Positions 690 to 63,828 of a stretch of 64,000 nucleotides of DNA are shown here, piece by piece (within the stretch, counting starts at the first letter, position 1; every line of letters starts with the position of its first letter). The translations under genes and the position numbers were made by a program. The stretch is from Candidatus Nomurabacteria bacterium. Its GTDB lineage: Bacteria > Patescibacteriota > Minisyncoccia > Phycocordibacterales > UBA9973. The notes under the pieces were generated by a model. That model searched no databases. It was given only the letters and a program-made list of their open reading frames with translations, and was not told the origin of the DNA. Location of the stretch: contig PMDZ01000006.1 in NCBI GenBank assembly GCA_003155695.1, forward strand, positions 20,007 through 84,006, written 5' to 3'.

Positions 690-693
690 TAAT

Positions 694-7124: not shown

Positions 7125-7131
7125 TGGATGA

Positions 7132-8466: not shown

Positions 8467-8470
8467 TTAG

Positions 8471-10285: not shown

Positions 10286-10290
10286 ATATT

Positions 10291-48903: not shown

Positions 48904-49013
48904 AAAAGACGACAATATTATTGTTTTGTGACGACGGGTGGGGGCGTGCCGTTCCGAGGTAACCCGAGGAATGGGGTTAAGGAGGAATAAAACAATAATA
49001 TTGTCGTCTTTTT
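48903..49013. repeat. 25-bp perfect inverted repeat (AAAAAGACGACAATATTATTGTTTT) enclosing a GC-rich 61-nt loop, starting at the stop codon of the preceding gene
   Basis: Arms at 48903..48927 and 48989..49013. The loop reads gtgacgacgggtgggggcgtgccgttccgaggtaacccgaggaatggggttaaggaggaat, roughly 62% GC in a roughly 35% GC genome. Confidence 0.7.
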
Positions 49014-49328
49014 CTGTTTTAGGCTATTTCAAGGAAACCCTTATATTCCCAGTTATCCACACCTTTTGGTCAAATCCTATGTATCTATTGCATATTATAA
49101 ACCTGGAGTATATAATATCTGTGTATATTGTTGCTGGTATTTTTTTACCATATGTGATAATATATAGTATCCCTGTGTACTTGTTTCTAATAAGCGCATT
49201 TGGGAAGAGAAGATCATTGAAAATAAAATACCTCTATATTCTAATACCAAGAAGGTAGTGGCCGTTTCGTTTTCACTGGTCGGATCCGTTTTGTTTCTTT
49301 TCAATTTTATTTTTCCTCAATCGCCCGA

Positions 49329-49700
49329 TTGATAGAGATTGGGTGAGTCTTACTTTGATAGAGGTGAGATTATCCCGTTGATAGAGACGGGTGATAAAAG
49401 AAAAATAAAAATAAAGATTTCAAAATGTGGTATCGGCCCTGTCGACAAGGCAGATATGCTTGTCTCGTCTTTTCTTTACTCTCTCGAAAAGAGATTCTTA
49501 AGAAGGGTAAAGGCAGGCAGTGTTTTTTAGTTTAGTTATTCAAGTAATTTATTTTTTGATACTTATTCCGTCATCATTTTTTTGATAGAGAAATTGTGGA
49601 GGGAAGAGAATAAAATAAATTATGAGATGGAAGGTTTATGTTTGTTATTTTACGGTTTTGAATTTTGTTACTTTTTCCATCGCAACTTTTTTGATAGAGA
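49329..49700 (+). promoter_or_regulatory. Five direct copies of TTGATAGAG in the roughly 960-bp noncoding region upstream of the S-layer-like gene
   Basis: Three copies lie at 26- and 23-bp spacing (49329, 49355, 49378), each followed by a GGTGA-containing tail. Further copies are at 49581 and 49692, each preceded by a T-run. They fall in different codon phases of any overlapping ORF, so they are nucleic-acid-level repeats. Confidence 0.5.
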
Positions 49701-49865
49701 GAAGTTATGGTTCAAGTTTCAGAATTTGGAAATTCAGTAAAAAAAGATTATTAATTATTAATTTCAATTCTTAATTATTAATCAAATACACACACATTAG
49801 TTTTTTTCCGGAGCACACAATTCATTATCAGTCGTCTTCCGGAATTAGTCGAAGCTAATCTAAAC

Positions 49866-51752
49866 GTGTATAAAATTATAAAGATTATGTTAAAAAAATT
49901 TTTAATCGGAGCAATAGCAGTAATAGCTTTTGGTGTTGTTATGCACACAGCTATGGCCGCTCTTGATTTCGGTCCTACAACTTTAAAAGTAGGTAGTACA
50001 GGAGTATTCGTAAGCACACTTCAGCAATTTGTTGGAGCAACAGCTGACGGATCTTTCGGTCCTATGACGAAAGCAAAGGTTATGGCATGGCAAGCAACAA
50101 ACGGCTTAACAGCTGATGGCGTGTTTGGTCCATTGTCAAAAGCTAAAGCTAACGCAACAGTTGGAACATATCCATCAGGTTGTTCGTCAACATTGGGTTA
50201 CAGCACAACAACCGGTTTACCATGTACAACAGCAGGAAATTATCCGGCAGGCTGTACTTCAGAAGTAGGATACTCTCCTACAACCGGAGCAAAGTGTGAT
50301 AGTTCAACAACTGGTGGTGGTTCCTCAGGTGGAGCTCTATCCGGTGGTGCAGGGGATGCAACTTTAACTCACTATTCAACCAGTGAGAAAAGTAAAATAA
50401 AAGAAGGAGATTCAGACGTTAAAGTTCTTGGCTTCAGAGTTGAAGCTTCAGATTCTGACATTGCTGTAAACAATGTTAAAGTTAAAATCGAAAACACTGA
50501 TGCACCTTCTTCTTCGTACAAAATCACAAAATACTTAGATTCAGTGGATATCTACCAAGGTTCAACAAAGGTTGGATCGGCAGATGCTGCTGACTTTACA
50601 AAAGCATCAGATGATTCTTACTCAAAATCAATTGCAGTTTCAAATGCAGTTGTTAGAGATGGGGACAAGGATCCTTTCTATGTAGTATTCAATGCTGTAG
50701 ATAGTATTGATTCAGAAAACTCTACTGCAAGTCTTACAGTAGGTGTAGAATCATTCCGCTTTACAGATGGATCAGGAGTTGTTACAACAGCAACACCCGA
50801 TCCAGCAGTTTCTAATGTAGTTACATTAGATGATTCATCAGATGTTCTAACTCTAAAGTCATCTTCAAATAATCCTGATGATGTAACTGTTACAGTTGAT
50901 GAAAACAATACTACAGATGAAGTATTAGCTCTTGCATTCAAATTGAAGGCAGGTTCTGATTCTTCAGATATCACACTTGATAAACTTCCAATTACTCTTG
51001 AAATAGCTGGTGCTGGAGCATCGGTTACTTCTTCAGAAAAAGTTATTGATTCTGTAGTTGTTAAGTTAGATGGTAAGGAAATCACAGCTGATGCTACTAA
51101 TACATCAATTAATAACGCAGGGTCAGATACAGCTCTATATACAGCTGACCTTTCAAATGAGGATATTACTATTGCTCAAGATGATACCCTTGAAGCAAAA
51201 GTTTATATAACTTTTGTTGAACAGGGTGGAACAGGTTCTGGTAAGAACTATACAGATGGCTCAACAGTTGTTACTGCTCATATAACAGGTACTGCTATTA
51301 CAGCAGAAAGTGCTAATGATGATACTATCAGTCCAACATCTGGTACACAAACAGGTGCTGCACTTACACTAAGTACATCTTCAATTACTTTGTCTGGTAT
51401 GAGTTGGACAACAACTTCAGGTTCATCTACTGGTACACTTGACTTCTACTTCTCATTAGAAGCTGGTGATAATGATGTTGAAAATCTTACAATAAGTGAT
51501 GTTGTTACATCAGAAAATACAACTAATGCTGGTGGTAAAGCAGCTGGTGATGCAGCAGGAGTTCTTACAAAGATATCTGGTGATGCAACAACAAACTCAA
51601 CAGGTAACTTTACAATCTCATCAGGTGATACTGCTAACTTCAGAATTAGATATACCACAACAGTTTCTGGTTCAGAAGTTCAGATTAAAACAATTAAAGG
51701 ACAAACAGTTCCTGATAACAAGCAATTGTCAGGTACATTTATTGCTCAATAA
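49866..51752 (+). CDS. Secreted cell-surface protein with an N-terminal peptidoglycan-binding (PG_binding_1-like) domain, Cys-pair repeats and a long S/T/D/A/V-rich beta region (S-layer-like)
   Basis: A signal peptide, then LKVGSTGVFVSTLQQFVGATADGSFGPMTKAKVMAWQATNGLTADGVFGPLSKAKA (a PGBD pattern), then three repeats YP(S/A)GC..(L/V)GYS.TTG..C, then about 450 aa of low-charge T/S/D/V-rich sequence. The gene has its own strong terminator. Confidence 0.6.
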   Translation: MYKIIKIMLKKFLIGAIAVIAFGVVMHTAMAALDFGPTTLKVGSTGVFVSTLQQFVGATADGSFGPMTKAKVMAWQATNGLTADGVFGPLSKAKANATVGTYPSGCSSTLGYSTTTGLPCTTAGNYPAGCTSEVGYSPTTGAKCDSSTTGGGSSGGALSGGAGDATLTHYSTSEKSKIKEGDSDVKVLGFRVEASDSDIAVNNVKVKIENTDAPSSSYKITKYLDSVDIYQGSTKVGSADAADFTKASDDSYSKSIAVSNAVVRDGDKDPFYVVFNAVDSIDSENSTASLTVGVESFRFTDGSGVVTTATPDPAVSNVVTLDDSSDVLTLKSSSNNPDDVTVTVDENNTTDEVLALAFKLKAGSDSSDITLDKLPITLEIAGAGASVTSSEKVIDSVVVKLDGKEITADATNTSINNAGSDTALYTADLSNEDITIAQDDTLEAKVYITFVEQGGTGSGKNYTDGSTVVTAHITGTAITAESANDDTISPTSGTQTGAALTLSTSSITLSGMSWTTTSGSSTGTLDFYFSLEAGDNDVENLTISDVVTSENTTNAGGKAAGDAAGVLTKISGDATTNSTGNFTISSGDTANFRIRYTTTVSGSEVQIKTIKGQTVPDNKQLSGTFIAQ

Positions 51753-51794
51753 TTGTATAACTAAATCTGGTTGATACGCCTTAAAATGTATTCA

Positions 51795-51825
51795 AAAAAC
51801 CACTCATTATATGAGTGGTTTTTTG
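51795..51825 (+). terminator. Rho-independent terminator of the S-layer-like gene
   Basis: aaaaaCCACTCATtatATGAGTGGtttttt. Confidence 0.85.
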
Positions 51826-51885
51826 TTATTTGAAAAGCTCCATTTCGTATAGATATTTTGTTCTTTTTCGGTTATACTCTTTAAT

Positions 51886-53904
51886 ATGGTGAAGGTAAAA
51901 GAGCAAATACTTTGGCAATGGAAGTGGATAGAATACTTGGCCTATGCTATTGTTTTTATCACCCCTCTTTATTTTAGTACAAATCATTGGTTTTCGTTTA
52001 ATTCCCCGAAGACGCTCGCTATTTCTTTTGGAGTTTTGTCTATGACTATATTGTATGCTTGGGGAGTTATTGTCTCAAAGAAATTTTCTATAAAAGTTAC
52101 CCCACTTCACATTGTATTAGGAGTTTTTCTTGTCATTCTTACTATCAGTTCTATTTTGGGAGTGGATGCGCATAATTCATTTTTTGGGACTTTTAGTTTT
52201 CCGACCAACTTAATTTTTATTTATATAGTATCTTTGTTCGCTATTTTTATCGGATTTTTGATTCATAGAGATAAACAATTTTTACCAAAAATAATTTTAA
52301 CATCTTTTCTTAGTAGTATCATTGTGGCTTTTTTCTCATATACAGGGACTTCAATTTTTAAAATATTTACTGATTATAGTTCGACAATAGGGAATAGTTC
52401 ATATGCCGGGGCTTATCTCTTGTTCAATATTTGCTTTGGAATTGGCTTATTCTCATATTATAAAAAATGTTGGAAGAAGATATTAATAGCGATTTCAACT
52501 CTTTTTATTATTTTTTGCCCGCTATTCTTCAATATAGATATTTTTTCCGGGAAAATTGCATTATCGGATATTTTACACAATCCGCTTTTGCTCGCAGGTG
52601 TTGCAAATGGGGCAGCTCTGGGTGTAATTTTTTCCATTATAATCATTGCTTGTTTTTATCTCTTATTATCTTGTAAGAAGCCAATTAAAATTATTGGAGT
52701 TGTTTTATTTTTAGGATTTCTTTTGGGAACTGTTTATACTGGTTATATTTTTTTGAATCCAACCTCGAAGATTCATAATATATATTCTGAAGTAAAAGGT
52801 GATAATAGATTTATAGCTTGGGATATTGCTGAGAGAGGTTTGATGGATAGACCGCTACTCGGTTCCGGATTTAATAACTTTTATTACACATATCAAAAAT
52901 ATTTTAGAGCGGATATTTATAAAGAAGATATTGAATTTTTCCTCCAACCGCATAATGTTGTTTTTGAGTATGCATCAAATAATGGTATTTTAGGATTAGT
53001 TTCTTTTCTCTCGTTGTTATTTTTTACTTTTCTCGCATTGTTTAAGTATAGAGAAGATGAAGACGGAGAATATAGAATGTTTAGAATCTCTATAATTGGT
53101 ATTTTATTCGGATATTTTATTCAAAATTTATTTGGTTTTGATACAGTTACCTCTTACCTGATGCTTTTCTTGGTTGTTGGGATTGCGATAGGACTATCTT
53201 ACAAAAACCGGGATATTGCATTTACCGACAAATCGGAAATAATAAAAAAAATAATTTCTGTAATTATAATACTTGGGAGCCTAGTTTCTATTGTTTTATT
53301 TGTTGTATTGCCATGGAAAGAATCTTTAAAATGGAGACATTTTAACCAGGAGACAAGACTTCAGGAGCTTAGCATATTGAGACAAGGGTTGCAGGAGACC
53401 TCTCTTTTCGGAGGAGTAGGAGATAGTACTTATGAAGCAATTAAATTATATAATTTTTATATAGCAAATGTGGATAAAATAAATGATTCGAATAGAATGT
53501 CTTTTCTTGATGAAATTGATTCTATTGTCGGGCAAATAGAAAAAGACCAACTGTCTCAACCAGATGATTTTCGGGCTTATCTTGTCATAGGGAAGTTATT
53601 GAGTCTAAAAATATATATTATGGGGAGGGTCGATGAGAGTGTTTGGGGAAAAGCGAATTTTTATCTGGATAAAACACTCAGCATTGTTAATTACCAAAAC
53701 CCTGAAGCTTTCTTGGCAAAGGCACAATTATATATTTTCAAAAATGACTATGTCCAAGCTCGTTTATATACCCAAAAAGCAATATCGTTAATTCCAAACT
53801 ACAAAGATTCATATGAAATAGCAAAAAAAATTCAAGCCTTGAGCTCCGATAAAGATTTCCAGAAATACATAGATAATATGCAAAAAATCTGGCTTATAAA
53901 ATAA
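51886..53904 (+). CDS. Wzy_C-domain (O-antigen ligase / O-oligosaccharyltransferase-like) polytopic membrane protein with C-terminal TPR repeats
   Basis: About 12 TM helices with the Wzy_C signature region ...RPLLGSGFNNFYYTYQKYF...QPHNVVFEYASNNGILGLVSFL. The C-terminus AFLAKAQLYIFKNDYVQARLYTQKAISLIPNYKDSYEIAKKI is TPR-like. Confidence 0.7.
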   Translation: MVKVKEQILWQWKWIEYLAYAIVFITPLYFSTNHWFSFNSPKTLAISFGVLSMTILYAWGVIVSKKFSIKVTPLHIVLGVFLVILTISSILGVDAHNSFFGTFSFPTNLIFIYIVSLFAIFIGFLIHRDKQFLPKIILTSFLSSIIVAFFSYTGTSIFKIFTDYSSTIGNSSYAGAYLLFNICFGIGLFSYYKKCWKKILIAISTLFIIFCPLFFNIDIFSGKIALSDILHNPLLLAGVANGAALGVIFSIIIIACFYLLLSCKKPIKIIGVVLFLGFLLGTVYTGYIFLNPTSKIHNIYSEVKGDNRFIAWDIAERGLMDRPLLGSGFNNFYYTYQKYFRADIYKEDIEFFLQPHNVVFEYASNNGILGLVSFLSLLFFTFLALFKYREDEDGEYRMFRISIIGILFGYFIQNLFGFDTVTSYLMLFLVVGIAIGLSYKNRDIAFTDKSEIIKKIISVIIILGSLVSIVLFVVLPWKESLKWRHFNQETRLQELSILRQGLQETSLFGGVGDSTYEAIKLYNFYIANVDKINDSNRMSFLDEIDSIVGQIEKDQLSQPDDFRAYLVIGKLLSLKIYIMGRVDESVWGKANFYLDKTLSIVNYQNPEAFLAKAQLYIFKNDYVQARLYTQKAISLIPNYKDSYEIAKKIQALSSDKDFQKYIDNMQKIWLIK

Positions 53905-53932
53905 TTATTAAAATAAATGTTATAATTAGGAT

Positions 53933-54817
53933 ATGAAAATAATAGTCACAGGCGGAGCGGGGTTTATTGGGAGCCATATTGTGGATACTCTTATTAACGG
54001 GGGATACGAAGTCCATGTTGTGGATAACTTATCGGCTGGGAAAAAGGAAAATGTGAACCCAAAGGCAACTCTACATGTAGTGGATATCCGAGATAAAGAT
54101 GCCCTCATTCCGATTTTTAAGGATGCCAAATACGTCTTCCACGAAGCAGCTTTCCCCCAAGTAGAGTATTCTATCCAAAATCCAATAGAGACAAATGATA
54201 TCAATGTGAATGGAACGTTGAATGTCTTGGAGGTTTCAAAAATAAATAAAGTCAGAAGAGTTATCTTTGCCTCTTCGTGCGCTGTCTATGGTGACCAAGA
54301 GAAAATGCCAATGGTTGAGGATATGGCTGTTTATCCACTTTCTCCTTATGCTGTCCATAAGCATATTGGGGAAATATATATGAAATTATATTCAGAAATT
54401 TATAATCTGGAGACTGTTTGTCTTCGGTATTTTAATGTCTATGGTCCACGCCAATCTGTGAATGGCTCATATCCACTTGTCATAGCCAAATTTTTAGACC
54501 TGAAAAAACAAAATAAGCCGCTTATGATAGTCGGAACCGGTGAGAATACTCGCGATTATGTCAATGTTCGAGATATTGTCCGGGCAAACATATTGGCGAT
54601 GAAAGGTGATAAGGTTGGAAAAGGAGAAGTTATAAATATTGGTACCGGCAAACAATATTCTGTTAACCAAATTGCCGAAATCATCGGTGGTCCGACAGAG
54701 CACATTCCTCCGCGAATTGAACCTCGTTGCGCGGAAGCTGGCATTACAAAAGCCAAAGAGCTTCTTGATTGGGAGCCGAGTGTGAGTTTAGAGGAGGGGA
54801 TAAATACTTTGCTTTAG
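53933..54817 (+). CDS. NAD-dependent sugar-nucleotide epimerase/dehydratase (GalE/WbpP-like SDR)
   Basis: MKIIVTGGAGFIGSH Rossmann fold and the YxxxK catalytic motif (YAVHKHIGE). Confidence 0.85.
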   Translation: MKIIVTGGAGFIGSHIVDTLINGGYEVHVVDNLSAGKKENVNPKATLHVVDIRDKDALIPIFKDAKYVFHEAAFPQVEYSIQNPIETNDINVNGTLNVLEVSKINKVRRVIFASSCAVYGDQEKMPMVEDMAVYPLSPYAVHKHIGEIYMKLYSEIYNLETVCLRYFNVYGPRQSVNGSYPLVIAKFLDLKKQNKPLMIVGTGENTRDYVNVRDIVRANILAMKGDKVGKGEVINIGTGKQYSVNQIAEIIGGPTEHIPPRIEPRCAEAGITKAKELLDWEPSVSLEEGINTLL

Positions 54818-54847
54818 GCCTTATTAATTAAAATATAAAGTTGTTAT

Positions 54848-55603
54848 ATGGATAATATTTTAGAAGAAGAAAAAAAATTTCAAGATTCGAAAGTCACAAG
54901 CAGTGTTCGTGCTGGGTATTATGCTTTCTATAAAGATAACAAAGAAACATTAGCTCATATTAATAATCATTTAAATGGAGTTTCCGGGAAAATTCTTGTT
55001 TTGGGATGTGGAGATGTGGATATTACCTTGCTTTCCAAATACAAATTCAACCAAATTGTTGGAATCGATATTTCTCCCGAATCGGTGAAAAAAATAAATT
55101 TATTCATAAAAAATAAAGGGTTGGGCGACAAAATAAAATGTTTTGTTATGGATGCCCATAATTTGGAGTTTAGTGATAAAGAATTCGATATAATCTTCGG
55201 AACTGGTATTTTGCATCATTTAAACATTGAAAAGGCCTCAGAAGAAATGAGGAGAGTATTAAAAGATAACGGCGAAATAATTTTTATGGAACCACTGGGA
55301 ATAAATCCAGTGCTAAATTGGCATCGCAAAAGAACACCGGAAGCAAGAACTGAATTTGAACACCCACTTCGCTCCAAAGACTTCAAGACAATAAAAAAAT
55401 ATTTTTCAATAAGCACAAAAGGGTTTTATCTATTTACAATCCTAAGTTTTGGATTCAAAACTATTATTAAATCTGATTTTCTTTATAAAATAAGTCGATT
55501 AGCACTTTCAGGCTTGGACATGTTATTATTATCTGTACTACCCTTAGATTACTTATGTTGGATTACAATCATTGAAGGTAAAAAAAGAAATTTAACTGTC
55601 TGA
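54848..55603 (+). CDS. Class I SAM-dependent methyltransferase
   Basis: ILVLGCGDVD motif I, GIDISPES, and a hydrophobic C-terminal tail. Confidence 0.65.
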   Translation: MDNILEEEKKFQDSKVTSSVRAGYYAFYKDNKETLAHINNHLNGVSGKILVLGCGDVDITLLSKYKFNQIVGIDISPESVKKINLFIKNKGLGDKIKCFVMDAHNLEFSDKEFDIIFGTGILHHLNIEKASEEMRRVLKDNGEIIFMEPLGINPVLNWHRKRTPEARTEFEHPLRSKDFKTIKKYFSISTKGFYLFTILSFGFKTIIKSDFLYKISRLALSGLDMLLLSVLPLDYLCWITIIEGKKRNLTV

Positions 55604-55621
55604 TGAGTCAGCAAAATAATT

Positions 55622-56554
55622 ATGGAAATAAGTGAAGAAAAAAGAAAGGAACTGATATCTCAACTTGACAGACTTTCAAAAAGAGCGTTTGAATACTTAA
55701 GATTTTTAGGCGCTGGCTTTATAAAAAAAATAATGAGAATGATCTCCTCTCCACGAATATTTTTTGAAAATATTTTCTGGCGCTTACGAGTGAAAATATC
55801 AGGATGCAAAAGTGAAATCCCTGTCACGTTTTTCTTTGGCAGAAAAATCCTTTTGGATATAAGAGACCGTGATGCCCTTGACCTCAAGCTGTTCGGTCTT
55901 TTGCCGGCCGACGAAGAATGCTCACTCACGAAATATTTTATAATGAATTTAAAGTCAAACGACGTATTTTACGATATCGGCGCGAACTGGGGTTTCTATT
56001 CTTATCTTGCCGTCATATTTTGCAATGAAGTACATGTTTTCGAACCTTTGCCAAATATAGCGAAACTTTTGGAAAAAAATTTAAGCGGTGACGCAAAAGT
56101 AACTTTCAATAACATTGCCATATCCGACAAAAAAGGGAGTTCTGAAATCTATATCAGTGAAAGTTCAGGAAGAAGTACGATTAACAAAGAATCTGTCGAG
56201 ATGAATGGGGGAAAAAACATGGGGAAAATTATTATTCAAACAACAACTTTGGATGAATATGTCCTGGGGAAAAATCTTCCGACAATCATCAAGATGGATG
56301 TGGAAGGAGCGGAATATATGGTAATCAAAGGGGGTATTGATATCTTTTCAAAACACAATCCGATTATTGCTTTAGAGGTATGGTCATCCTCTTTTGGAGG
56401 ATCAATTTCGATGAAAGCGGTAGAATTGCTGAGAGAAATGGGGTATACTTCATATAGAATAACGGATAAGAGCACGCTTGAAGGAATAAAAGGAGATCTA
56501 TCTTTGTCGATAGGACAAGGAAGAAATTGTGAAAACTTCATTTTTAAAAAATAA
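55622..56554 (+). CDS. FkbM-family methyltransferase
   Basis: YDIGANWGFYS...LDEYVLGKNLPTIIKMDVEGAEYMVIKGG, the Methyltransf_21/FkbM signature. Confidence 0.8.
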   Translation: MEISEEKRKELISQLDRLSKRAFEYLRFLGAGFIKKIMRMISSPRIFFENIFWRLRVKISGCKSEIPVTFFFGRKILLDIRDRDALDLKLFGLLPADEECSLTKYFIMNLKSNDVFYDIGANWGFYSYLAVIFCNEVHVFEPLPNIAKLLEKNLSGDAKVTFNNIAISDKKGSSEIYISESSGRSTINKESVEMNGGKNMGKIIIQTTTLDEYVLGKNLPTIIKMDVEGAEYMVIKGGIDIFSKHNPIIALEVWSSSFGGSISMKAVELLREMGYTSYRITDKSTLEGIKGDLSLSIGQGRNCENFIFKK

Positions 56555-56590
56555 TGTTCATATTTACAATTATTAACAAAAAGTGTATCA

Positions 56591-57649
56591 ATGAATAACC
56601 AAGAAAAAAAAATTAAAATAGGAATAGTGGGTGCCGGCTGGGTGGCGAATAATCGACATATTCCGGCTTTTAAGTCCGACCGACGATGCAGTATCGTGGC
56701 AATATACGATACAACACTAGAAAAAGCGGAAAAAACGGCAAAAAAGTACAAAATAAAAAATATATTTTCTGATTATAATTCGTTTTTAAATTCGGAAATA
56801 GATGCTGTTGTGGTCTGTACTCCGCCAATGTGTCATGCCAGTGTGGCCAAGGAAGCGCTTCTTCGAAATAAACACGTGCTGGTAGAAAAACCATTTTCTC
56901 TCACTATCGCTGATGGAAAAGAAATTGAAAATATTGCAAAAAGCAATGGTTTAATACTTTTTCCGGGACATAATTTCCTTTTTTCTAGAGCAATGTTAAA
57001 AATAAAAGAAGAACTAAAAAAACCGGACACAGGTGATATTTTGCATGTATCCGGATATCAGTGGAGCAGTTGGATGCGTCATCTTCCGACTTGGTTTCCA
57101 GAATTACCCGGCGGCTTATTCTTTGATGAAGGTCCTCATTTTATGTATTTGATGAAATATCTTGTGGGAGATTTTTCCGTAACTTCCGCAACATATACCA
57201 AAAAAGAAGCTGGGATGAAAAGACCGTTTGAAAATTATGTGGTCTCGGTAAAGGGAGAAAGGGCAACTGGAGATTTTTCGATGTTTTTCGGGTCGCCAAT
57301 GTCCGAATGGTTAATTGTCATAATGTGTCAGAAAAAGACACTTGTTTATGATATGTTCAGGGACTTTTACTTTACATTTAACCCCGAGCTAAAAAGAACT
57401 CGCATGTATCCAATAAGTGTTGTTGCATCCTTTGACAGACAGGTTTGGAAACAATATATAAAGTGGATATTCAGAAGATACGCCATATTTAAGCGGCACT
57501 TATATGGTGCCGATGTAATCGCAAGAAAATTTTTGGACGCAATCACAGGAAAAAGCGAACCAATTTTACACCCGTCAGATGGATATCAAGCTGTCGAAAA
57601 AATTATTGAAATAATTAAAAAATCAGGAACGAATTTATATGAAGTCTGA
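56591..57649 (+). CDS. Gfo/Idh/MocA-family NAD(P)-dependent oxidoreductase (sugar-nucleotide dehydrogenase-like)
   Basis: IKIGIVGAGWVANNRHIPAF N-terminal Rossmann fold and the EKP motif (VLVEKPFSLT). Confidence 0.8.
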   Translation: MNNQEKKIKIGIVGAGWVANNRHIPAFKSDRRCSIVAIYDTTLEKAEKTAKKYKIKNIFSDYNSFLNSEIDAVVVCTPPMCHASVAKEALLRNKHVLVEKPFSLTIADGKEIENIAKSNGLILFPGHNFLFSRAMLKIKEELKKPDTGDILHVSGYQWSSWMRHLPTWFPELPGGLFFDEGPHFMYLMKYLVGDFSVTSATYTKKEAGMKRPFENYVVSVKGERATGDFSMFFGSPMSEWLIVIMCQKKTLVYDMFRDFYFTFNPELKRTRMYPISVVASFDRQVWKQYIKWIFRRYAIFKRHLYGADVIARKFLDAITGKSEPILHPSDGYQAVEKIIEIIKKSGTNLYEV

Positions 57650-58745
57650 AGTAGTTTTTTTTACTCATACACTAGAGGGGGGAGTCGGCAGAGTTACCAT
57701 GCAGTTGGCTGAAGGTTTTTTAAACGAGGGTGTTTCTTCGGAAGTTTGGACACAAGAGAACACAGATTTGTCTCCATCGTTTGCTTCAGTTAAAATTTTT
57801 TCTTTTAACAAAAAAAAGGCTCGCCAACTTTTTTTTCTTCTATTAAAAAAGATTAATGAAGATAAACCGAGAGTGATAATTTCATCAACATTCTATACCA
57901 ATATTATTGCTATAATATCGTCACTACTCTCTCATCGTAAAGTCAAAGTAATTGTTATCGAACATATTGCTGTTAAGTCTGAATTCAAAAACTTGGGTCT
58001 ATTAAAAAAATTAATCATGCGCGTCTTGATATTCTTTTTTTATCGTCTTGCCTATTCGGTCGTAACAGTGTCCGATGAATCCGGCGATATTCTAAGTAGA
58101 TTCTGCCTTTTACCACGAAAAAAAATTATTACTATATACAACCCTGTTATTTCTAAAGATTTATACGAAAAATCAAATACTCCAATAAACCACCCTTTTT
58201 TTAACTTAGGTCATCCAATTCTTCTTAATGTAGGAAGGCTAGATAAGCAGAAAGATATTGGCACACTCCTCGAGGCGTTTTCTATAGTAACGAAAGAAAT
58301 TGAAAGCCGCCTTATTATAATTGGAGAAGGAAATGGAAAAACACAATTAATAGAACAATGCAAAAAATTAAAAATTCTTAATCAGGTGGATTTTGCTGGG
58401 TATTTGAAAAATCCCTATCCTTTTTTCAAAAAATCTAGCGTGTTTGCCCTTTCTTCACTATATGAAGGTCTGCCAACTGTTCTTATTGAGGCCTTGGCTT
58501 TGCGACTTCCCATTGTCAGCACAAAATGTCCATCAGGTCCGGCAGAAATACTCCAGCAAGGAAAATACGGGATTCTTGTACCTATTAAAGATCCGAAATC
58601 TCTCGCACAAGGAGTTTTGAATCTTTTGAAAAATAAAAATATTATTCATGAACCACCGGAAGAATATCTAGACCCGTATACTCAAAAGTATTCTGTTCAC
58701 CGTTATCTTTCAATTATTCATAATATTAATAAAAAAAATGATTAA
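57639..58745 (+). CDS. Glycosyltransferase family 4 (GT-B, Glycos_transf_1)
   Basis: LLNVGRLDKQKDIGTLLEAF...FALSSLYEGLPTVLIEALALRLPIVSTKCPSGPAEIL (the EX7E region). Confidence 0.85.
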   Translation: MKSEVVFFTHTLEGGVGRVTMQLAEGFLNEGVSSEVWTQENTDLSPSFASVKIFSFNKKKARQLFFLLLKKINEDKPRVIISSTFYTNIIAIISSLLSHRKVKVIVIEHIAVKSEFKNLGLLKKLIMRVLIFFFYRLAYSVVTVSDESGDILSRFCLLPRKKIITIYNPVISKDLYEKSNTPINHPFFNLGHPILLNVGRLDKQKDIGTLLEAFSIVTKEIESRLIIIGEGNGKTQLIEQCKKLKILNQVDFAGYLKNPYPFFKKSSVFALSSLYEGLPTVLIEALALRLPIVSTKCPSGPAEILQQGKYGILVPIKDPKSLAQGVLNLLKNKNIIHEPPEEYLDPYTQKYSVHRYLSIIHNINKKND

Positions 58746-60012
58746 AACAATGTTAAATAAAATATCAAAAGAAATCGACTACTGTTTAATAGGAATTCTG
58801 TTTTTATGCATGTATTTTACCGGGCCCTTATATCAAGTAAATCTGATTGGGATAAAGATTTTACCATTTGATTTTGCCATTGTTGGAATAACAATTTTTG
58901 TAATTCTGAGAATGCTTAAAGAAAAAACTTTGAAATACAATATAATTTCATTTCCTAAGATATTACTGATTTCTTTCTGTTTATTCGCCACAATGATGTC
59001 ATTGGACATATTGAGAGTACCGGCACATTTATCAGTCTTGACCCTTCTTATTGCAACTATTCGAAATTTCGTATTCTCTTGGATAATAATTAATCTGGTT
59101 TTGCGTACTAAGATTAATCAAGAGCAAATCATGAGTTTAGTTACATGCATAACTACTGCCGTTTCATTTGTTAGTATAATTGCATATTTTATCTATTCTA
59201 TCTCGTTAGCTAAAATTCAAATGATGCCTTCTTTATGGCATCTTGGTATTTGGTATTATTTAAGCGAAGGAAAATTCTTGAGATTGTCTGGACTTGCAAG
59301 CGATCCCAATTTTTTTATCGCAGTTAGCATCGTGGGATTTATTTTTTCCCTCTTACTTTTCAATAAGAATAATTTACAGAAGATTATGTCGTTTATTATA
59401 TTCATTGCGCTTGTTCTTACTATTTCAAAAATTTTTCTAGTGTTGCTTGTTGGGTCATTCATGGGTTTGTTGGCGATTTATATAATAAAAAAACAAAAAT
59501 ATATTTTGGATATCCTACGAAACTTTTTAACGATCGTTATTATATCGTCGGTTGTTCTGCTGATTATTGGTATCATGTTCCCGAAAGTAAATGTGTATAA
59601 AATGTATACATCAAGAATATCCACTGAAGTAGCTTATACAAATAACCCAGAAGCAATTGACACTCGCTCGAGTTTGTGGAAGGTAGGATATGAAACTTAT
59701 TTGGAACACCCGGTTACTGGTTCCGGTGGCAAAGCTATACTCTTCAAAAGAGGTATGTATGTTCATAATGATTATCTGGAAATGATGAGTTCCTATGGCA
59801 TAATTGGCTTGATGATCTTACTCTTCTTCCTTTTTTCCAATCTATTTGTATCCTTTAAATATTTATACAGTAGATTGTTGCTGGCACCATTCCTCTCAAT
59901 TTTTTGTTATGTTGGTTTTATGATGGGTTTTTCAGTGTTTTTCAATCCATATTTTTTCTTTCCTCTCGGAATAATGTGGTCGCAAATTATTCTGTTAAAA
60001 AAACAAGAATAA
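58738..60012 (+). CDS. O-antigen polymerase/ligase-family (Wzy-like) polytopic membrane protein
   Basis: About 10-12 TM helices with a Wzy_C-like loop ...HPVTGSGGKAILFKRGMYVHNDYLEMMSSYGIIGLMILLFF. Confidence 0.7.
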   Translation: MIKTMLNKISKEIDYCLIGILFLCMYFTGPLYQVNLIGIKILPFDFAIVGITIFVILRMLKEKTLKYNIISFPKILLISFCLFATMMSLDILRVPAHLSVLTLLIATIRNFVFSWIIINLVLRTKINQEQIMSLVTCITTAVSFVSIIAYFIYSISLAKIQMMPSLWHLGIWYYLSEGKFLRLSGLASDPNFFIAVSIVGFIFSLLLFNKNNLQKIMSFIIFIALVLTISKIFLVLLVGSFMGLLAIYIIKKQKYILDILRNFLTIVIISSVVLLIIGIMFPKVNVYKMYTSRISTEVAYTNNPEAIDTRSSLWKVGYETYLEHPVTGSGGKAILFKRGMYVHNDYLEMMSSYGIIGLMILLFFLFSNLFVSFKYLYSRLLLAPFLSIFCYVGFMMGFSVFFNPYFFFPLGIMWSQIILLKKQE

Positions 60013-60041
60013 TCAGTTAACTTGCCAAAATTAGATTTAAG

Positions 60042-60932
60042 ATGATGATTTCAGTAATAATAATTACATACAGAAGAAAGGAGGAAATCCTGAAATGTTT
60101 AGAATCAATCGTATCACAGGACTATAATAATTATGAAATTATTCTTATCGATAATAACAAGGAAGAACATTTTTCCGAATATATTCTAAATCATGCAAAA
60201 GATGTACCTCGATTAAAATATATCAAAAATAATTTTAATTCTTCGGTTACAGGAGGGAGAAATCTGGGTGTTTTGCATGCCTCGGGAGATATTTGTGTTT
60301 TTATCGATGATGACGCGTTTTTTGAAAAAAATAATGCATTAACCTTAACTTCCGAAAAAATGAATAGAGAAAAAGATGTGGGGGTTTTAGCTTATAAAAT
60401 AATAAATTATTCGAGTAAAAATGTTGAGCGCAAAGAATTCCCATTTAAGAACAAAAAGATCGATAAAAATACTGAAACTGAAGCCTCATACTTCTTGGGA
60501 GGAGCACATGCAATACGTAGGAATGTCTTTGGTTTAGTAGAAGGATACCCGGAAGATTTTATATATGGAATGGAAGAATTGGATATTTCATTCAGAATTT
60601 TGGATAAGGGTTTTAAAATATTGTATTTCCCTTGTGTTATCGCATGGCACAACCCGTCCATATCGGGAAGACTTGAAAAAAAATCTTACTGGAAAAACAT
60701 TTTGGAAAATAGACTAAAGGTTGGAATCCGGAATCTTCCATGGAGGTATTTTGCGATTAATTTTATCATATGGTCTCTGAAGGTGCTGAAAGAATCCAAG
60801 AACATAATGGTGCTGATTGAAACATATAGTTCTCTTCTCAGAAACAGGAAAGAGATTCAGAAGGGAAGAAAAGTCATTTCGAACAAGACAATTAAAAAAT
60901 TAAAATTAATTGATAATAGGTTATATTATTAA
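60042..60932 (+). CDS. Glycosyltransferase family 2
   Basis: MISVIIITYRRKEEILKCLESIVSQDY..YEIILIDN and a DDD motif (FIDDDAFF). Confidence 0.85.
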   Translation: MMISVIIITYRRKEEILKCLESIVSQDYNNYEIILIDNNKEEHFSEYILNHAKDVPRLKYIKNNFNSSVTGGRNLGVLHASGDICVFIDDDAFFEKNNALTLTSEKMNREKDVGVLAYKIINYSSKNVERKEFPFKNKKIDKNTETEASYFLGGAHAIRRNVFGLVEGYPEDFIYGMEELDISFRILDKGFKILYFPCVIAWHNPSISGRLEKKSYWKNILENRLKVGIRNLPWRYFAINFIIWSLKVLKESKNIMVLIETYSSLLRNRKEIQKGRKVISNKTIKKLKLIDNRLYY

Positions 60933-60934
60933 AA

Positions 60935-62161
60935 ATGACAAAAAGAAAAAAAATACTGATTTCATTGTTCAGATTTCCTTATCCAGCAAGTGATGGTACT
61001 CGAAATAAAATTCTAAAAAGTGTGATTGAAGGACTTGCTACTGATTTTGATCTTGAGTTTTTTATTGTTTCAACTGAAAAAATTGAGCCCAAAAATGTTG
61101 AATATTTTAAGAACAAATACGGCAAAATCCATTTATTTAAGCATTCGAAATTCGAAATGGTATTAAGGGCATTTTGTGCTCTATTCTCAAAACTACCGAT
61201 TCAAGCGCGTGTGTACATATATGAAGATGCAAAGAAATGGCTAAGAAAAAACATCAATTCATTTGATGCATTATATGTTCACGAAATACGTCTTACCGAA
61301 TATTTAACAGATATTAACTTCGATAAAAATAAAATAGTAATCGACCTGAACGATGCAATATCTTTAAATTATAGTTCTTCTTTGGTTAATATCGGATATT
61401 TTAAAAAATTATTTTATTCTTTCGAATTTAAAAGAGTTAGAGATTATGAGGAAAAAATTGTTAATTCATTTAAACATTTTGTTACGGTGTCGGAATATGA
61501 CAGAAATTATCTGTTAAAATTTAATAAAAATAATTCACTAATACATTTTGTCTGTATTAGACTCGGTTTTGCAGTCTCTGAAAATTTTTATCGAGAAAAG
61601 GCGTCCGACCACAATATTTATTTTATCGGCAATTTGAATTATGAACCTAATCGTGATTGTATTTATTTCTTGTTACAACAAATTTTGCCGGAAGCAAAAA
61701 AAATAATTCCTGATCTTTCTTTATATATAATAGGAGGAGGTAATATTCCGAAGAAATTCTTTAGCCTTCCTGGTGTGATATTTACCGGGTTTGTTAATGA
61801 TCCTCTTCCAGTAATTGAAAAATGTAGCGCACTTATCGCACCCATCCGCTTCAACGGGGGAGTTCCTTCAAAAATTTTAGAATCCATGTCATACGGTATT
61901 CCCGTGGTGACATCCAAAGAAGCGGTTAATGGTATCGTTGATCTTAAAAATCACGAAAATATAATTTTATGCAATATTACCGATGTACATGCTTGGTGCC
62001 TGTCATTAAAAGAAATATTATTCAACTCTGAATTAAGAAACAAAATAGGGGTAAATGCTAAAGTATTCATAAATGAAAATTATTCTATATATAAAAGTCA
62101 ACAGGAATTTCGTAATTTGTTCCATGAAATTATATTGAGGAAAGAACCCTTTTCCAGCTAA
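60935..62161 (+). CDS. Glycosyltransferase family 4-like (GT-B)
   Basis: A C-terminal GT1/GT4 domain: IYFIGNLNYEPNRD...APIRFNGGVPSKILESMSYGIPVVTS. Confidence 0.75.
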   Translation: MTKRKKILISLFRFPYPASDGTRNKILKSVIEGLATDFDLEFFIVSTEKIEPKNVEYFKNKYGKIHLFKHSKFEMVLRAFCALFSKLPIQARVYIYEDAKKWLRKNINSFDALYVHEIRLTEYLTDINFDKNKIVIDLNDAISLNYSSSLVNIGYFKKLFYSFEFKRVRDYEEKIVNSFKHFVTVSEYDRNYLLKFNKNNSLIHFVCIRLGFAVSENFYREKASDHNIYFIGNLNYEPNRDCIYFLLQQILPEAKKIIPDLSLYIIGGGNIPKKFFSLPGVIFTGFVNDPLPVIEKCSALIAPIRFNGGVPSKILESMSYGIPVVTSKEAVNGIVDLKNHENIILCNITDVHAWCLSLKEILFNSELRNKIGVNAKVFINENYSIYKSQQEFRNLFHEIILRKEPFSS

Positions 62162-63386
62162 GTGTTACCAAAAGGCATAATGCCAATGTTGTTGTTACAG
62201 ATGAACCAATAATTCCAAACTTAGGAACAAAAATAATATTAAATACCAAATTAAAAACCAATGCGCAAATATTAGCGATGAGGAGTTTTCTTTGCTTATT
62301 TGCAGCGATTGAACCATATATAATCAAAAAATTCAGAAAAGTTGGGATAAGAGAAATAAATAATATTCGGAGAGCGTCGATGCTTCCAATATAATCTTTC
62401 CCGTATATTAAAATTATTATCGTCCTTGAAAAAAACATTCCAAGTACAGCTACAACAATTGCCAACCCAGAATAAAATTTAGCATATTTTTTTAATAGAT
62501 TCTTGAATTTTTGTATATCTTCTTTTGCGCTCCTGACTAAAGTTGGTAACAATGATATTGAAAGAAATGCGGGTATAACATATAAAAACAATATGATTCT
62601 TTGTGCTGAAGAATACAGACCGACTTGTTGCACTCCTTTAAAATATCCTAAAATAAGAGTATCAACATTGAAAGCTGTAGTATTTACTGCAAAATTAATG
62701 GTGATCGGCAAAGCAGCTACGAAAATTATTAAAGCGAGTTTTTTGGAAAAATTGAAAAATATTTCTCTTCGATACTCGGCAAGCGAAAATATTGAAAATA
62801 ATAATCCTATGAAAGCCCCTATACTGTATCCCACTGCAAGAAAAAAAACATTTTTATATAAAAAAAGAAATAAAATACCCAGGATCCCGACGGAGGCATA
62901 CGCAATTATTTTCAATACTGCCTCACGCTCCATTTTTTCCAATGAGCGGTGAAAAGACATGAAAAATTCTCTCAAGGAATCAAAGACGAGAAAAAGCAGT
63001 ACGAAGAAAACCAACCACCCATCAACTTTTATCTTTCCTAGGTGAATAAGGACAAAAGTTAACAATGAAGCGAAAATAAGAAGTGAGAATTTAAGATAAA
63101 ATGCCGTCGAAAAATATGAGGTTTTATAATCATTATCAGTTGAAAGTTCTTTTGTTGCCAAGGTGTTTAACCCGACGTCGGTAAATGAAATAAACAATGA
63201 GGCAAAAGCAAGAATATACGAAAATAGTCCCCAACCCGTGAGCCCAAGGGTTCTTGCGGCGTAAATAACCAGAATCATTTTAAACAATCTTCCTATTACT
63301 TCTCCGAAAAATAGCCATACAGTATTTTTAATAACAGTTTGTTTGGTATTAGTATTTACAAAAAAGAAATTCTTAATTTGCTCCAT
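62130..63386 (-). CDS. Polysaccharide/oligosaccharide flippase (Wzx, MOP superfamily)
   Basis: A 418-aa protein with about 12-14 TM helices in the Polysacc_synt-like arrangement. It is convergent with the glycosyltransferase operon. Confidence 0.75.
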   Translation of the reverse strand: MEQIKNFFFVNTNTKQTVIKNTVWLFFGEVIGRLFKMILVIYAARTLGLTGWGLFSYILAFASLFISFTDVGLNTLATKELSTDNDYKTSYFSTAFYLKFSLLIFASLLTFVLIHLGKIKVDGWLVFFVLLFLVFDSLREFFMSFHRSLEKMEREAVLKIIAYASVGILGILFLFLYKNVFFLAVGYSIGAFIGLLFSIFSLAEYRREIFFNFSKKLALIIFVAALPITINFAVNTTAFNVDTLILGYFKGVQQVGLYSSAQRIILFLYVIPAFLSISLLPTLVRSAKEDIQKFKNLLKKYAKFYSGLAIVVAVLGMFFSRTIIILIYGKDYIGSIDALRILFISLIPTFLNFLIIYGSIAANKQRKLLIANICALVFNLVFNIIFVPKFGIIGSSVTTTLALCLLVTLSWKRVLSSI

Positions 63387-63828
63387 TTTTATTTTTCAAA
63401 ATTTTAGATTCTTCCTCAAGGATCCTTTTTCTTAGATTACTTGTTGAATAATTATGGTTGCGACTGTTATAAATGACTTTCATATCAGGGAGCATGTCTC
63501 TTGAGTAATTTGGTTTATTCCGCCAATCTTCTCCCATAAAGCGTACATCCGGATTAATTTTTTTCAATAATGTAAGCAGTCCTTTTTCGGTATTGTAAAT
63601 TTCTATTTTATCAATATGTCGGCAGGCCTTTAATTGGATAAACCTTTCCTCCATGGATTGAATTGGTTTATGTTTATCCTTCCTATCTATTGAAGGGTCA
63701 ATTTGTAATCCAACAACTAGATAGTCACATTGCTTTCTCGCTTCTTCGAACATCAAATAATGACCGGCATGGGTCAAGTCAAAAGCCCCGCAAGTGAAAC
63801 CAATAATTTTTTTACCTTTCTTTTTCAT
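63373..63828 (-). CDS. Cytidylyltransferase-family nucleotidyltransferase (TagD / RfaE domain II-like)
   Basis: IIGFTCGAFDLTHAGHYLMFEEA matches the (H/T)xGH motif of CTP_transf_like enzymes. It overlaps the upstream Wzx gene by 14 nt. Confidence 0.75.
   Translation of the reverse strand: MKKKGKKIIGFTCGAFDLTHAGHYLMFEEARKQCDYLVVGLQIDPSIDRKDKHKPIQSMEERFIQLKACRHIDKIEIYNTEKGLLTLLKKINPDVRFMGEDWRNKPNYSRDMLPDMKVIYNSRNHNYSTSNLRKRILEEESKILKNKNGAN

Follow-up and report, generated by a model that had tools for sequence, protein, structure and literature searches.

A candidate surface-layer protein gene of Patescibacteria and its adjoining Wzy_C ligase and glycan island

S-layer proteins such as Sap of Bacillus anthracis and SbsB of Geobacillus join a wall-anchoring module to tandem Ig-like domains. 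In pilA-tfpO the transferase gene lies directly 3' of the gene for its target, an arrangement that recurs in the locus described here, where a ligase gene follows a surface-protein gene. The closest described systems are the slg loci, in which S-layer genes are monocistronic, with sgsE and sgtA adjoining their slg clusters, while the clusters lie below the genome in G+C and a WbaP-like enzyme initiates the glycan (PMC2943079). The predicted S-layer O-oligosaccharyltransferases WsaB and WsfB carry a Wzy_C domain, and a TPR is present at the C-terminus of WsfB as well as of PglL (PMC2943079). Surface layers have been seen by cryo-EM on ultra-small CPR/Patescibacteria cells of the Parcubacteria type. 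The literature that we searched assigns no S-layer protein to such cells and calls the structure and formation of their envelope unclear.

Here we examine a 64,000-nucleotide stretch of contig PMDZ01000006.1 (the window), from a Candidatus Nomurabacteria bacterium, in which the gene for a surface protein (SLP) is followed by glycan genes. Coordinates are window positions, and features lie on the plus strand unless stated otherwise. An ORF and Pfam check found the 12 genes that an earlier note had placed here, at their coordinates and with their domains. It also bore out the reading of the low-G+C block 3' of SLP as a surface-glycan island, encoding a Wzx, two Wzy_C proteins, three glycosyltransferases and sugar-modifying enzymes. 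Each point of precedent in the slg loci (PMC2943079) has a counterpart at this locus. The best reading, to which we give a probability of roughly 0.5, is a slg-like locus that would O-glycosylate SLP. The analysis establishes the domains, folds and topology and a conserved gene order; the lattice, the acceptor, the identity of the sugars and the level of expression we infer.

SLP had been described as a 628-aa protein at 49866..51752. The open reading frame is sound, but public gene calls and an N-terminus conserved among homologues (MLKKFLIG) indicate that translation probably starts at the ATG at 49887, which gives 621 aa (49887..51752). The protein comprises a signal peptide (residues 1-24, cleaved between AMA and A), a three-helix PG_binding_1 domain at about 30-92 (Pfam, E 3.6e-8), predicted disulfide mini-repeats at 95-137 followed by a G/S linker, and three acidic, Cys-free, S/T-rich beta-sandwich domains (153-315, 316-480 and 481-621). 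Three Cys-pair repeats had been counted; there are just two, YPSGC..C at 95-113 and YPAGC..C at 119-137, in a protein with four Cys in total, and homologues have from 0 to 4. The claim of an S-layer-like composition held: S+T amounts to 26.4%, the top value among window ORFs of at least 150 aa, the mature pI is 4.24 and Cys is confined to the two repeats. With S-layer proteins SLP shares the acidic pI, the scarcity of Cys and the hydroxy and hydrophobic residues, as well as secretion and a dedicated wall-anchoring module. Its family numbers about 390-550 clusters at 50% identity in Patescibacteria (387 representative clusters at E<=1e-10) and is uniform in length and architecture, and every named match came from Patescibacteria lineages.

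Lytic enzymes often carry PG_binding_1, and among the automatic names given to homologues of SLP are 'cell wall lytic activity' and 'peptidoglycan hydrolase-like'. Domain and fold searches found no enzyme domain in SLP, whether amidase, muramidase, peptidase or transglycosylase, and the idea that it is a peptidoglycan hydrolase is barely credible. The earlier note had called for structure prediction to look for S-layer-like lattice domains. The SLP fold matches no solved S-layer protein, and comes closest to Ig-like modules known from adhesins and pilins (C-terminal domains of AgI/II, pilins of Gram-positives and integrin legs). Ig-like domains in tandem are as characteristic of adhesins as of S-layer proteins, and the window encodes further large adhesin-like proteins (VWA/SdrD_B, Peptidase_S74). 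SLP might then be a wall-anchored adhesin or spacer that forms no 2D lattice, glycosylated or not, serving for example in the attachment of an epibiont to its host. We consider this possible but doubtful: among S-layer proteins of solved structure, those of Bacillus and archaea likewise consist of chained Ig-like domains, and a family of uniform length and architecture at a fixed chromosomal position, whose gene has a conserved leader and a candidate regulator of its own and shows a stronger codon bias than any other in the window, is more what one expects of a structural housekeeping protein of the envelope than of a variable adhesin.

Comparison of neighbouring genes across loci shows a fixed order of FtsK, a winged-helix protein, a long structured leader and SLP. 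The winged-helix protein, here called up276 (276 aa, conserved; 48073..48903), matched no Pfam or NCBIfam family, its HTH_DeoR/BlaI-like matches being weak, and the winged-helix motif at its C-terminus, SEKTIQREL..KRWSxY, is invariant in the homologue alignment. It is the upstream neighbour of SLP in all 51 loci with sufficient upstream sequence, and is a candidate regulator of the SLP gene. Directly 3' of its stop stands a hairpin with a 27-bp perfect stem and then a T-run (48903..49015; RNA fold -49.8 kcal/mol, z -7.3). The hairpin arm occurs at just these two places in the window, and the structure is likely a terminator that divides up276 from the SLP transcription unit. Since a simple promoter scan did not report it, we infer from the sequence a sigma-70-like promoter, TTGCAT-17-TATAAT, at 49088..49116, in a block near-identical among relatives (alignment of five loci). 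We propose that an SLP leader of about 760 nt would start there.

Five copies of TTGATAGAG lie within this leader (49329..49699), all on the plus strand, against 0.52 expected. Most form the apex of hairpins with differing stems, and the stems flanking the motif have a mean of 7.45 bp, as against 4.35 bp in shuffles. At least three plus-strand copies are present in 41 of 80 metagenome loci, and a minus-strand copy in one. The leader also holds an invariant, imperfect 25-nt palindrome, TATCGGCC[C/T]TGTCGACA[A/C]GGCAGAT (49431..49455), which is unchanged in 12 divergent loci and exact in at least 119 metagenome contigs. An SLP-like ORF lies downstream of it in 58 of 58 cases and an up276-like ORF upstream in 51 of 51, which makes it a candidate for an operator, or an RNA element, specific to SLP. 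At the other end of the gene, a terminator scan found a bidirectional terminator with a 15-bp stem (51793..51825) between SLP and the ligase gene, a sign that the SLP transcript does not extend into the genes behind it. The Nc (38.2) and GC3 (0.17) of SLP are the lowest among 51 genes, a bias that is not a clean sign of high expression because its codon preference is unlike that of the ribosomal-protein genes of the same window. SLP probably forms a separate, and perhaps strongly expressed, transcription unit.

The following gene (51886..53904) encodes a 672-aa protein for which a Wzy_C domain and a TPR region had been claimed. The first is supported by Pfam (E 2.9e-13); the second is a weak Pfam match in the window copy, but the C-terminus has a TPR fold in the model, and 28 of 46 homologues match TPR families significantly. 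In Foldseek searches with the AF2 model (pLDDT 91.5), WaaL (7tpg, 7tpg_B) was the sole significant PDB fold match (E 2.3e-5, TMt 0.60, prob 1.0), and the C-terminal ~185 aa matched TPR proteins. The positive-inside rule gives 13 TM helices and an extracytoplasmic TPR domain. R308 and H356, in the outer loop, are invariant in the homologue alignment, so that the protein has both the membrane fold and the outer-loop Arg/His of WaaL. By domain content the ligase differs from the PglL family, in which PglL_A (PF15864) and Wzy_C_2 flank Wzy_C: both are absent from it, Wzy_C and TPR being its sole domains even at E<=10. One of the 46 homologues has Wzy_C_2. On the modelled architecture, we propose that it is an O-oligosaccharyltransferase.

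The island has a G+C of 0.33, against 0.386 in the remaining window. Behind the ligase, domain searches place an NAD epimerase/dehydratase closest to GalE (53933..54817; Pfam Epimerase 1.2e-64; NCBIfam galE 9.5e-51, under the curated cut-off), a SAM methyltransferase (Pfam Methyltransf_11/25; 54848..55603), an FkbM-family methyltransferase (Pfam; 55622..56554) and a Gfo/Idh/MocA oxidoreductase (56591..57649), the best partial match of which, UDP-GlcNAc 3-dehydrogenase, is under the curated cut-off. These are followed by a GT4 glycosyltransferase (57639..58745), a second Wzy_C protein of 424 aa that has no TPR (58738..60012; Pfam Wzy_C 2.2e-12), a GT2 glycosyltransferase (60042..60932) and a GT4-type glycosyltransferase (60935..62161), the three glycosyltransferases all by Pfam. 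On the minus strand lie a Wzx-type flippase (Polysacc_synt/MurJ-like, Pfam; 62130..63386) and a cytidylyl/adenylyltransferase resembling RfaE domain II or TagD (Pfam, NCBIfam; 63373..63828). The earlier note saw in these genes a full Wzx/Wzy pathway. Within the window the initiating transferase is absent, and the pathway is full if a Bac_transf (PF02397) gene just past the window end, 5' of rplJ-rplL, is counted; flippase, polymerase and initiating transferase are then all present, the role of the polymerase being read from domain and context. No Wzz/PCP chain-length regulator domain occurs in the genes from 51886 to rplJ. The 424-aa protein, whose R..G.G..HN loop is the sole part shared with the 672-aa ligase, is a candidate Wzy polymerase; both proteins carry the Arg/His loop, and the division of polymerase and ligase roles between them, by context alone, is provisional.

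Conservation of this gene order in relatives, which the earlier note had called for checking, is partial. The juxtaposition of SLP and a Wzy_C gene recurs, whereas about a third of relatives carry SLP with no ligase or glycan cluster adjoining it, and the link between SLP and the cluster is therefore facultative. A Wzy_C-family gene is found next to SLP or a few kb 3' of it in 27 of 42 informative loci (~64%). These comprise 17 of the 23 loci picked by the upstream DNA element, a sample independent of SLP and Wzy_C in which 13 of the genes lie within 400 nt, and 10 of the 19 chosen as homologues. The juxtaposition is thus not an accident of this genome. The ligase is the constant member in most loci, often 4-140 nt from SLP, and the glycan genes behind it vary by locus (Wzx/Wzy, ABC transporter, rhamnose genes, GT11). 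The interval from SLP to rplJ-rplL is a variable slot that holds unrelated secreted proteins in other genomes, and the adjacency of SLP and ligase could come partly from an insertion hot spot.

A slot of this kind, at times occupied by other secreted proteins, would also suit an island whose product is a polysaccharide attached to the wall or to lipid (a capsule, a secondary wall polymer or a glycolipid), with the ligase ligating or polymerising it onto a non-protein acceptor and SLP a mere neighbour. The low G+C and a toxin-antitoxin-like pair, within the island past the window end, recall horizontally exchanged cassettes; the nearest solved fold, WaaL, is a lipid-acceptor ligase, and the Wzy_C family includes polymerases, by its Pfam description. 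We nevertheless consider this explanation unlikely. Gram-positive wall polymers are attached by LCP enzymes, Wzy_C proteins not being known to do so, and glycan pathways with an ABC transporter need no polymerase, yet the ligase gene is retained in loci with such pathways. Its constant place abutting SLP, while the rest vary, argues in the same direction, as does the reported lack of lipid A in these monoderm-type CPR genomes (PMC5220378); we found no lipid A genes in the window. As to other protein acceptors, pilins are substrates of Wzy_C enzymes in Pseudomonas and Neisseria (PMC2943079), and S/T-rich pilin genes with N_methyl motifs are present in the window. That the glycan is made for these type IV pilins, 40 kb upstream, by a TfpO/PilO-like enzyme is nonetheless quite improbable, given that no Wzy_C gene adjoins the pilin genes in the window and that in the loci compared the ligase gene accompanies SLP and not the pilin genes.

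Under the preferred slg-like reading, SLP would be expressed from its far-upstream promoter through the conserved, structured leader of about 760 nt to a strong terminator, and exported by Sec. PG_binding_1 would hold it non-covalently on peptidoglycan, the two disulfide-stapled mini-repeats and the Gly/Ser linker forming a short stalk. The three beta-sandwich domains would be displayed outside and may make up the surface layer that cryo-EM has shown on such cells. The island would assemble an undecaprenyl-phosphate-linked and probably methylated oligosaccharide, initiated by the Bac_transf enzyme past the window end and extended by GT4, GT2 and GT4, from precursors supplied by the epimerase, the Gfo/Idh/MocA oxidoreductase, the two methyltransferases and the nucleotidyltransferase. 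Wzx would flip the lipid-linked glycan, the 424-aa Wzy_C protein might polymerise it, and the WaaL-fold ligase, its TPR domain facing the wall, would transfer it en bloc to Ser/Thr/Tyr of SLP and perhaps of other surface proteins. More tentatively, we suggest that SLP may be the S-layer glycoprotein of Paceibacteria/Parcubacteria, anchored in a new way through PG_binding_1 and the disulfide mini-repeats and recognised by the ligase through its TPR domain. Its gene might then be under the control of a dedicated module not described before, made up of the lineage-specific up276, the 25-nt palindrome and a leader with 3-7 UGAUAGAG-loop hairpins.

The locus offers a specific and widely conserved candidate surface-layer protein for Patescibacteria, together with a candidate enzyme for its glycosylation. 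A variable glycan island beside a constant SLP gene suggests that surface glycans of these epibionts are diversified under pressure from phage or host, like O-antigens. The invariant 25-nt element and the hairpin leader provide a handle on gene regulation, of which almost none is known in the phylum.

Among known systems, S-layer proteins of the Sap/SbsB type resemble SLP in their N-terminal, non-covalent wall anchor and in an acidic, Cys-poor beta-sandwich chain. They differ in the anchor used and bear no detectable sequence or specific fold relation to SLP, which has three beta domains only. WaaL shares with the ligase its membrane-domain fold and outer-loop Arg/His region, but lacks the TPR domain and has 12 TM helices, compared to 13 in the ligase, and its acceptor is lipid A-core, which CPR genomes reportedly lack (PMC5220378). 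PglL/PilO (TfpO) of Neisseria and Pseudomonas likewise carry Wzy_C and the outer-loop Arg/His, and the TPR of PglL is C-terminal, as in the ligase (PMC2943079). The ligase is set apart from them by a 13th TM helix, a TPR domain of ~185 aa and the lack of PglL_A and Wzy_C_2, and we propose that it acts on a beta-sandwich protein anchored to the wall and not on a pilin. The slg hosts belong to a phylum other than Patescibacteria. Their S-layer proteins are anchored by SLH domains in place of PG_binding_1 and Cys mini-repeats and are unrelated in sequence to SLP, and their glycans are exported by a Wzm/Wzt ABC transporter, as opposed to Wzx with a second Wzy_C protein here, although some SLP relatives use ABC export. 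In both the slg loci (Geobacillus stearothermophilus sgsE with wsaA-P; Paenibacillus alvei spaA and wsfB) and the SLP locus, a separately transcribed surface gene stands by a low-G+C glycan cluster in a monoderm host. The cluster has glycosyltransferase, methyltransferase and cytidylyltransferase genes, an exporter, initiation of the WbaP/Bac_transf type and, judged by architecture, a Wzy_C O-oligosaccharyltransferase whose TPR is part of it or associated with it, that of the ligase being placed as in WsfB.

The surface protein that opens the glycan cluster (SLP) is a 621-aa product of the gene at 49887..51752 (+). The earlier note had given it 628 aa, whereas the start is placed at ATG 49887 by public gene calls and by an N-terminus that homologues conserve. 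In a confident AlphaFold2 model from a 43-sequence alignment (pLDDT 83.8), a three-helix domain at residues ~30-92 is followed by two small hairpins of low confidence where the Cys repeats lie, and then by a Gly/Ser linker and three domains of beta-sandwich type (153-315, 316-480 and 481-621). Three Cys-pair repeats had been claimed, but two are present, of the form YP[SA]GC-13-C (residues 95-113 and 119-137), and the protein has no Cys outside these stalk repeats. A thioredoxin-like and DsbB pair encoded at 309-1251 (+) is machinery for extracytoplasmic disulfides and fits the repeats; given this pair, such disulfides are plausible in the SLP. The low-charge, T/S-rich composition described before was borne out, with a pI of 4.2 for the mature protein and an S+T content of 26.4%, the highest in the window.

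Foldseek matched the SLP to integrin legs, antigen I/II C-terminal domains, and Gram-positive pilins, and a PDB sequence search returned PG_binding_1 matches only. The view that this PG_binding_1 protein is a hydrolase, which the earlier note had set against its own reading, fails because no catalytic domain was found in the SLP by any method used, and we consider it scarcely credible. We propose only tentatively that the SLP forms a true two-dimensional lattice; that it is instead a non-lattice adhesin or spacer, a role compatible with glycosylation, seems somewhat unlikely. The C-terminal three-domain module, searched alone among 1.84 billion representative clusters, matched 549 at E<=1e-3 and 387 at E<=1e-10, and the matches listed are mostly proteins of 560-760 aa with the module at the same position. 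Named SLP homologues belong to Paceibacteria, Nomurabacteria, Moranbacteria, and similar lineages, which places the source among uncultured Patescibacteria (CPR).

The SLP gene has the strongest codon bias among 51 genes (Nc 38.2, GC3 0.17): it hardly uses GCG, GTC, CTC, or CTG and favours ACA, TCA, GGT, and GTT, unlike the ribosomal-protein and EF-G genes of the window. Scored for codon adaptation against the ribosomal/EF set, whose own bias is very weak, the SLP did not rank among highly expressed genes; only Nc and GC3 are therefore given. A terminator with a 15-bp stem lies 3' of the gene.

An ORF list and Pfam scans reproduced the gene content reported previously, at the same coordinates. 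The PG_binding_1 protein (SLP; 49866/49887..51752) is followed, up to 63828, by a 672-aa Wzy_C protein, a GalE-like epimerase, Methyltransf_11 and FkbM methyltransferases, a Gfo/Idh/MocA oxidoreductase, a GT4, a 424-aa Wzy_C protein, a GT2, a second GT4, a convergent Wzx, and a cytidylyltransferase-like gene. The genes thus agree with the full Wzx/Wzy pathway proposed earlier, except that the initiating phosphoglycosyl transferase is outside the window: a Bac_transf gene is found further along the 93.8-kb source contig, after the cytidylyltransferase and a HigB-like toxin pair, and is followed by rplJ-rplL. The toxin gene and its small partner sit inside the glycan island, between cytidylyltransferase and Bac_transf (L086:3358-4929, ~0.1-1.7 kb past position 64000 on the source contig), and rplJ-rplL after Bac_transf marks the end of the variable slot. 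The G+C content of the cluster is 0.33 versus 0.386 for the rest of the window. The region very probably pairs a surface-glycan island with a wall-anchored surface protein that is not an enzyme.

The remaining window (G+C ~38%) encodes type IV pilus genes, ComEC, S12-S7-EF-G, NusG-L11, EF-P, RecA, and FtsK. A search for tRNA and tmRNA found none. The pilus cluster, at 5367-12386 (+), includes PilB, PilC, and pilin-like proteins (604 and 205 aa) that carry N_methyl motifs. At 23450-30968 (+), listed ORFs that share ~115 nt encode two very large S/T-rich surface proteins; one, of 1443 aa, has a Peptidase_S74 domain (endosialidase chaperone, tail-fibre-like) and the other, of 1100 aa, has VWA, SdrD_B, and CarboxypepD_reg domains. 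Both are possible host-attachment adhesins. The gene at 45052-45465 (-) encodes a small protein, anchored in the membrane, that has a Glucodextran_B-like (Ig-like) domain; nearly all related loci keep it between RecA and FtsK.

The 672-aa Wzy_C protein is the candidate ligase. Its model (pLDDT 91.5, pTM 0.92) has a single significant match to a solved structure, the WaaL O-antigen ligase 7tpg_B (E 2.3e-5, TMt 0.60), and its last ~185 residues match TPR proteins; a PDB sequence search returned designed TPRs only. The TPR match is weak in the window copy, and TPR families reach significance in 28 of 46 homologues. The protein has thirteen helices whose arrangement follows the positive-inside rule, with the N-terminus inside and the 291-357 loop and TPR domain outside, and R308 and H356 in this loop are invariant across the 46 homologues. 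The 424-aa Wzy_C protein shares just this loop motif with the larger protein, and the roles of ligase and polymerase were therefore set by context. It is the TPR form that constantly adjoins the SLP, and it is kept where an ABC-transporter pathway makes a polymerase unnecessary. Since a Pfam search of the ligase and 46 homologues found no PglL_A domain, the ligase was not filed in the PglL family. Pilins had been named, along with the SLP, as a possible acceptor of the glycan; that the glycan serves pilin glycosylation we regard as very unlikely.

Gene order in relatives was compared in two independent sets of loci, the first gathered via SLP homologues and the second via an invariant 25-nt DNA element alone. 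One search for the first set rested on PG_binding_1 motifs, and most of its 80 loci were unrelated PG-binding proteins, leaving ~15 usable. The backbone of this set runs from EF-P, RecA, the small Glucodextran_B-like protein, and FtsK (minus strand) to a Pfam-less protein of 200-300 aa (up276 in the window), 0.4-1.0 kb of non-coding DNA, the SLP, and a variable slot closing at rplJ-rplL. A Wzy_C protein of 640-740 aa is encoded directly 3' of the SLP in 9 of 19 informative loci and 3 kb off in one more; the genes behind it vary by locus (Wzx plus a second Wzy_C, an ABC transporter, GT11-type transferases, rhamnose genes). Exact copies of the 25-nt element that defines the second set number at least 119 among metagenome contigs, and 80 loci were fetched. 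An SLP-like ORF lies downstream on the same strand in all 58 loci with enough downstream sequence, and a Wzy_C-family ORF follows on the same strand within 400 nt in 13 of the 23 loci with at least 1.5 kb after the SLP, and within 5 kb in 4 more. Tandem Wzy_C-TPR-type genes (641 and 679 aa) occur directly 3' of the SLP gene at L013:2121-6089, and in L097, L098, and L164 a shorter Wzy_C without TPR follows much longer SLP homologues (~1100 aa).

Over both sets, a ligase-type Wzy_C gene follows the SLP in 27 of 42 loci (~64%). CPR genomes, as a general figure, hold roughly a thousand genes, and the linkage is therefore far too frequent for chance. It is not obligatory: in 8 loci of the first set the slot has no glycan cluster, and in some of these it holds other S/T-rich secreted proteins. 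A competing explanation treats the site next to the SLP as an insertion hot spot and the glycan as destined for a non-protein acceptor, which we consider unlikely.

The reading that we favour, at a probability of about 0.5 for the full statement, is an slg-like locus (S-layer glycosylation cluster type) in which the ligase glycosylates the SLP. The SLP would be exported by Sec and anchored on peptidoglycan; a lipid-linked, probably methylated oligosaccharide would be built on the cytoplasmic side, then flipped by Wzx and perhaps polymerised; and the WaaL-fold/TPR ligase would then move the glycan en bloc onto hydroxyl residues of the SLP. Of this picture, the analysis itself establishes the domains, folds, topology, and linkage, and from these the acceptor, the lattice, the sugar chemistry, and the expression level are inferred. 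The earlier interpretation is partly supported, and the observation beneath it stands with minor corrections.

The spacer 5' of the SLP gene, which lies outside the coordinates of the earlier note, is 983 nt, unusually long for so compact a genome, and conserved. Its blocks are nearly identical in five genomes whose SLP proteins are just 36-45% identical. Within them lie a promoter-like site, TTGCAT-17-TATAAT (49088-49116; transcription start predicted near 49123), and five copies of TTGATAGAG (49329-49699, all +). The TGATAGAG copies are mostly at the tips of hairpins (also termed UGAUAGAG hairpins) with unrelated stem sequences, their flanking complementarity exceeds that of all 500 shuffles, and RNAalifold on five sequences predicted 76 pairs, 15 with compensatory changes. 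Three or more TTGATAGAG copies (3-7) are on the + strand in 41 of 80 metagenome loci, and - strand copies occur in one only. This looks like a repeated, putatively protein-binding RNA hairpin. Further blocks that clades share lie at 49076-49260 and 49790-49886 (+): G[AG]TCATTGAAAA, and GTCGAA[AG]CTAA, 25-40 nt 5' of the SLP ATG, which is kept even in L003, where the SLP lies in other genomic surroundings. The ATG has no obvious Shine-Dalgarno sequence ahead of it. An SRP RNA, suggested by the string AAGGCAGAU, was rejected on negative Rfam results: searches at the gathering threshold (whole window) and at E<=5 (48850-49950) gave spurious miRNA/lncRNA matches only.

The invariant 25-nt element is an imperfect palindrome, TATCGGCC[C/T]TGTCGACA[A/C]GGCAGAT (49431-49455, +), which occurs once per locus, always between up276-like and SLP-like genes. 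It is also present in L005, L006, L007, L009, L011, L012, L014, L015, L017, L020, L024, and L090-L169, and absent from one clade (L004, L008, L010, L016, L019) that shares other conserved blocks. Its variable positions are C/A (67), T/C (12), or C/C (1), never complementary. A dif (XerCD) site beside FtsK was considered and rejected, as the element bears no likeness to known dif arms, no skew or gene-orientation switch is present, and the element is strictly coupled to the SLP and up276.

The up276 gene (48073-48903, +) encodes 276 aa, has no Pfam or NCBIfam family, and is always the upstream neighbour of the SLP gene; in the second set an up276-like ORF lies upstream in 51/51 loci with enough upstream sequence. 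The protein has a helical N-terminal region (K..KL.TALYMVTD...DPLK.KLR; ISEMN) and an invariant C-terminal winged-helix motif (SEKTIQREL...G.KRWS.Y), and a PDB sequence search with it found no match. We regard it as a candidate dedicated regulator of the SLP gene. Our working idea, drawn from sequence, is that the SLP mRNA carries a long structured 5' leader and that up276 may act on the palindrome; a separate sRNA ending near 49480 would be the alternative to such a leader. At 48903-49015 (+), a very stable hairpin (-49.8 kcal/mol, z -7.3), with a perfect 27-bp stem around ~60 nt of G+C-rich sequence and a T-run behind it, is specific to this genome among the five close relatives aligned; it may terminate up276 or be a small element inserted there.

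For some CPR species, S-layers have been observed by cryo-EM or otherwise reported, and SLH proteins were proposed for Absconditabacteria. A Parcubacteria genome paper speculated on a glycosylated S-layer and said that envelope structure remains unclear; among the papers searched we found none assigning the SLP family. The closest comparison is with slg loci, where Wzy_C is contained in WsaB and WsfB, both predicted to be S-layer O-oligosaccharyltransferases; a TPR motif stands at the C-terminus of WsfB and PglL, and a TPR gene lies beside wsaB (PMC2943079). In that group S-layer genes are transcribed monocistronically, sgsE and sgtA are near their slg clusters and other S-layer genes are distant, and the G+C of the clusters is below that of the genome. 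WbaP-type enzymes initiate the glycan there, and both methylation and a cytidylyltransferase of tagD type are known (PMC2943079). Counterparts here are the SLP terminator, the cluster G+C of 0.33 versus 0.386, Bac_transf, the two methyltransferases, and the cytidylyltransferase. The anchor differs, being SLH in slg loci and PG_binding_1 plus Cys repeats in the SLP, as do the structural protein, which is unrelated to the SLP, export, which uses Wzx in this genome, and the phylum. The locus would represent the known arrangement of an S-layer gene plus slg cluster, here as a variant in Patescibacteria.
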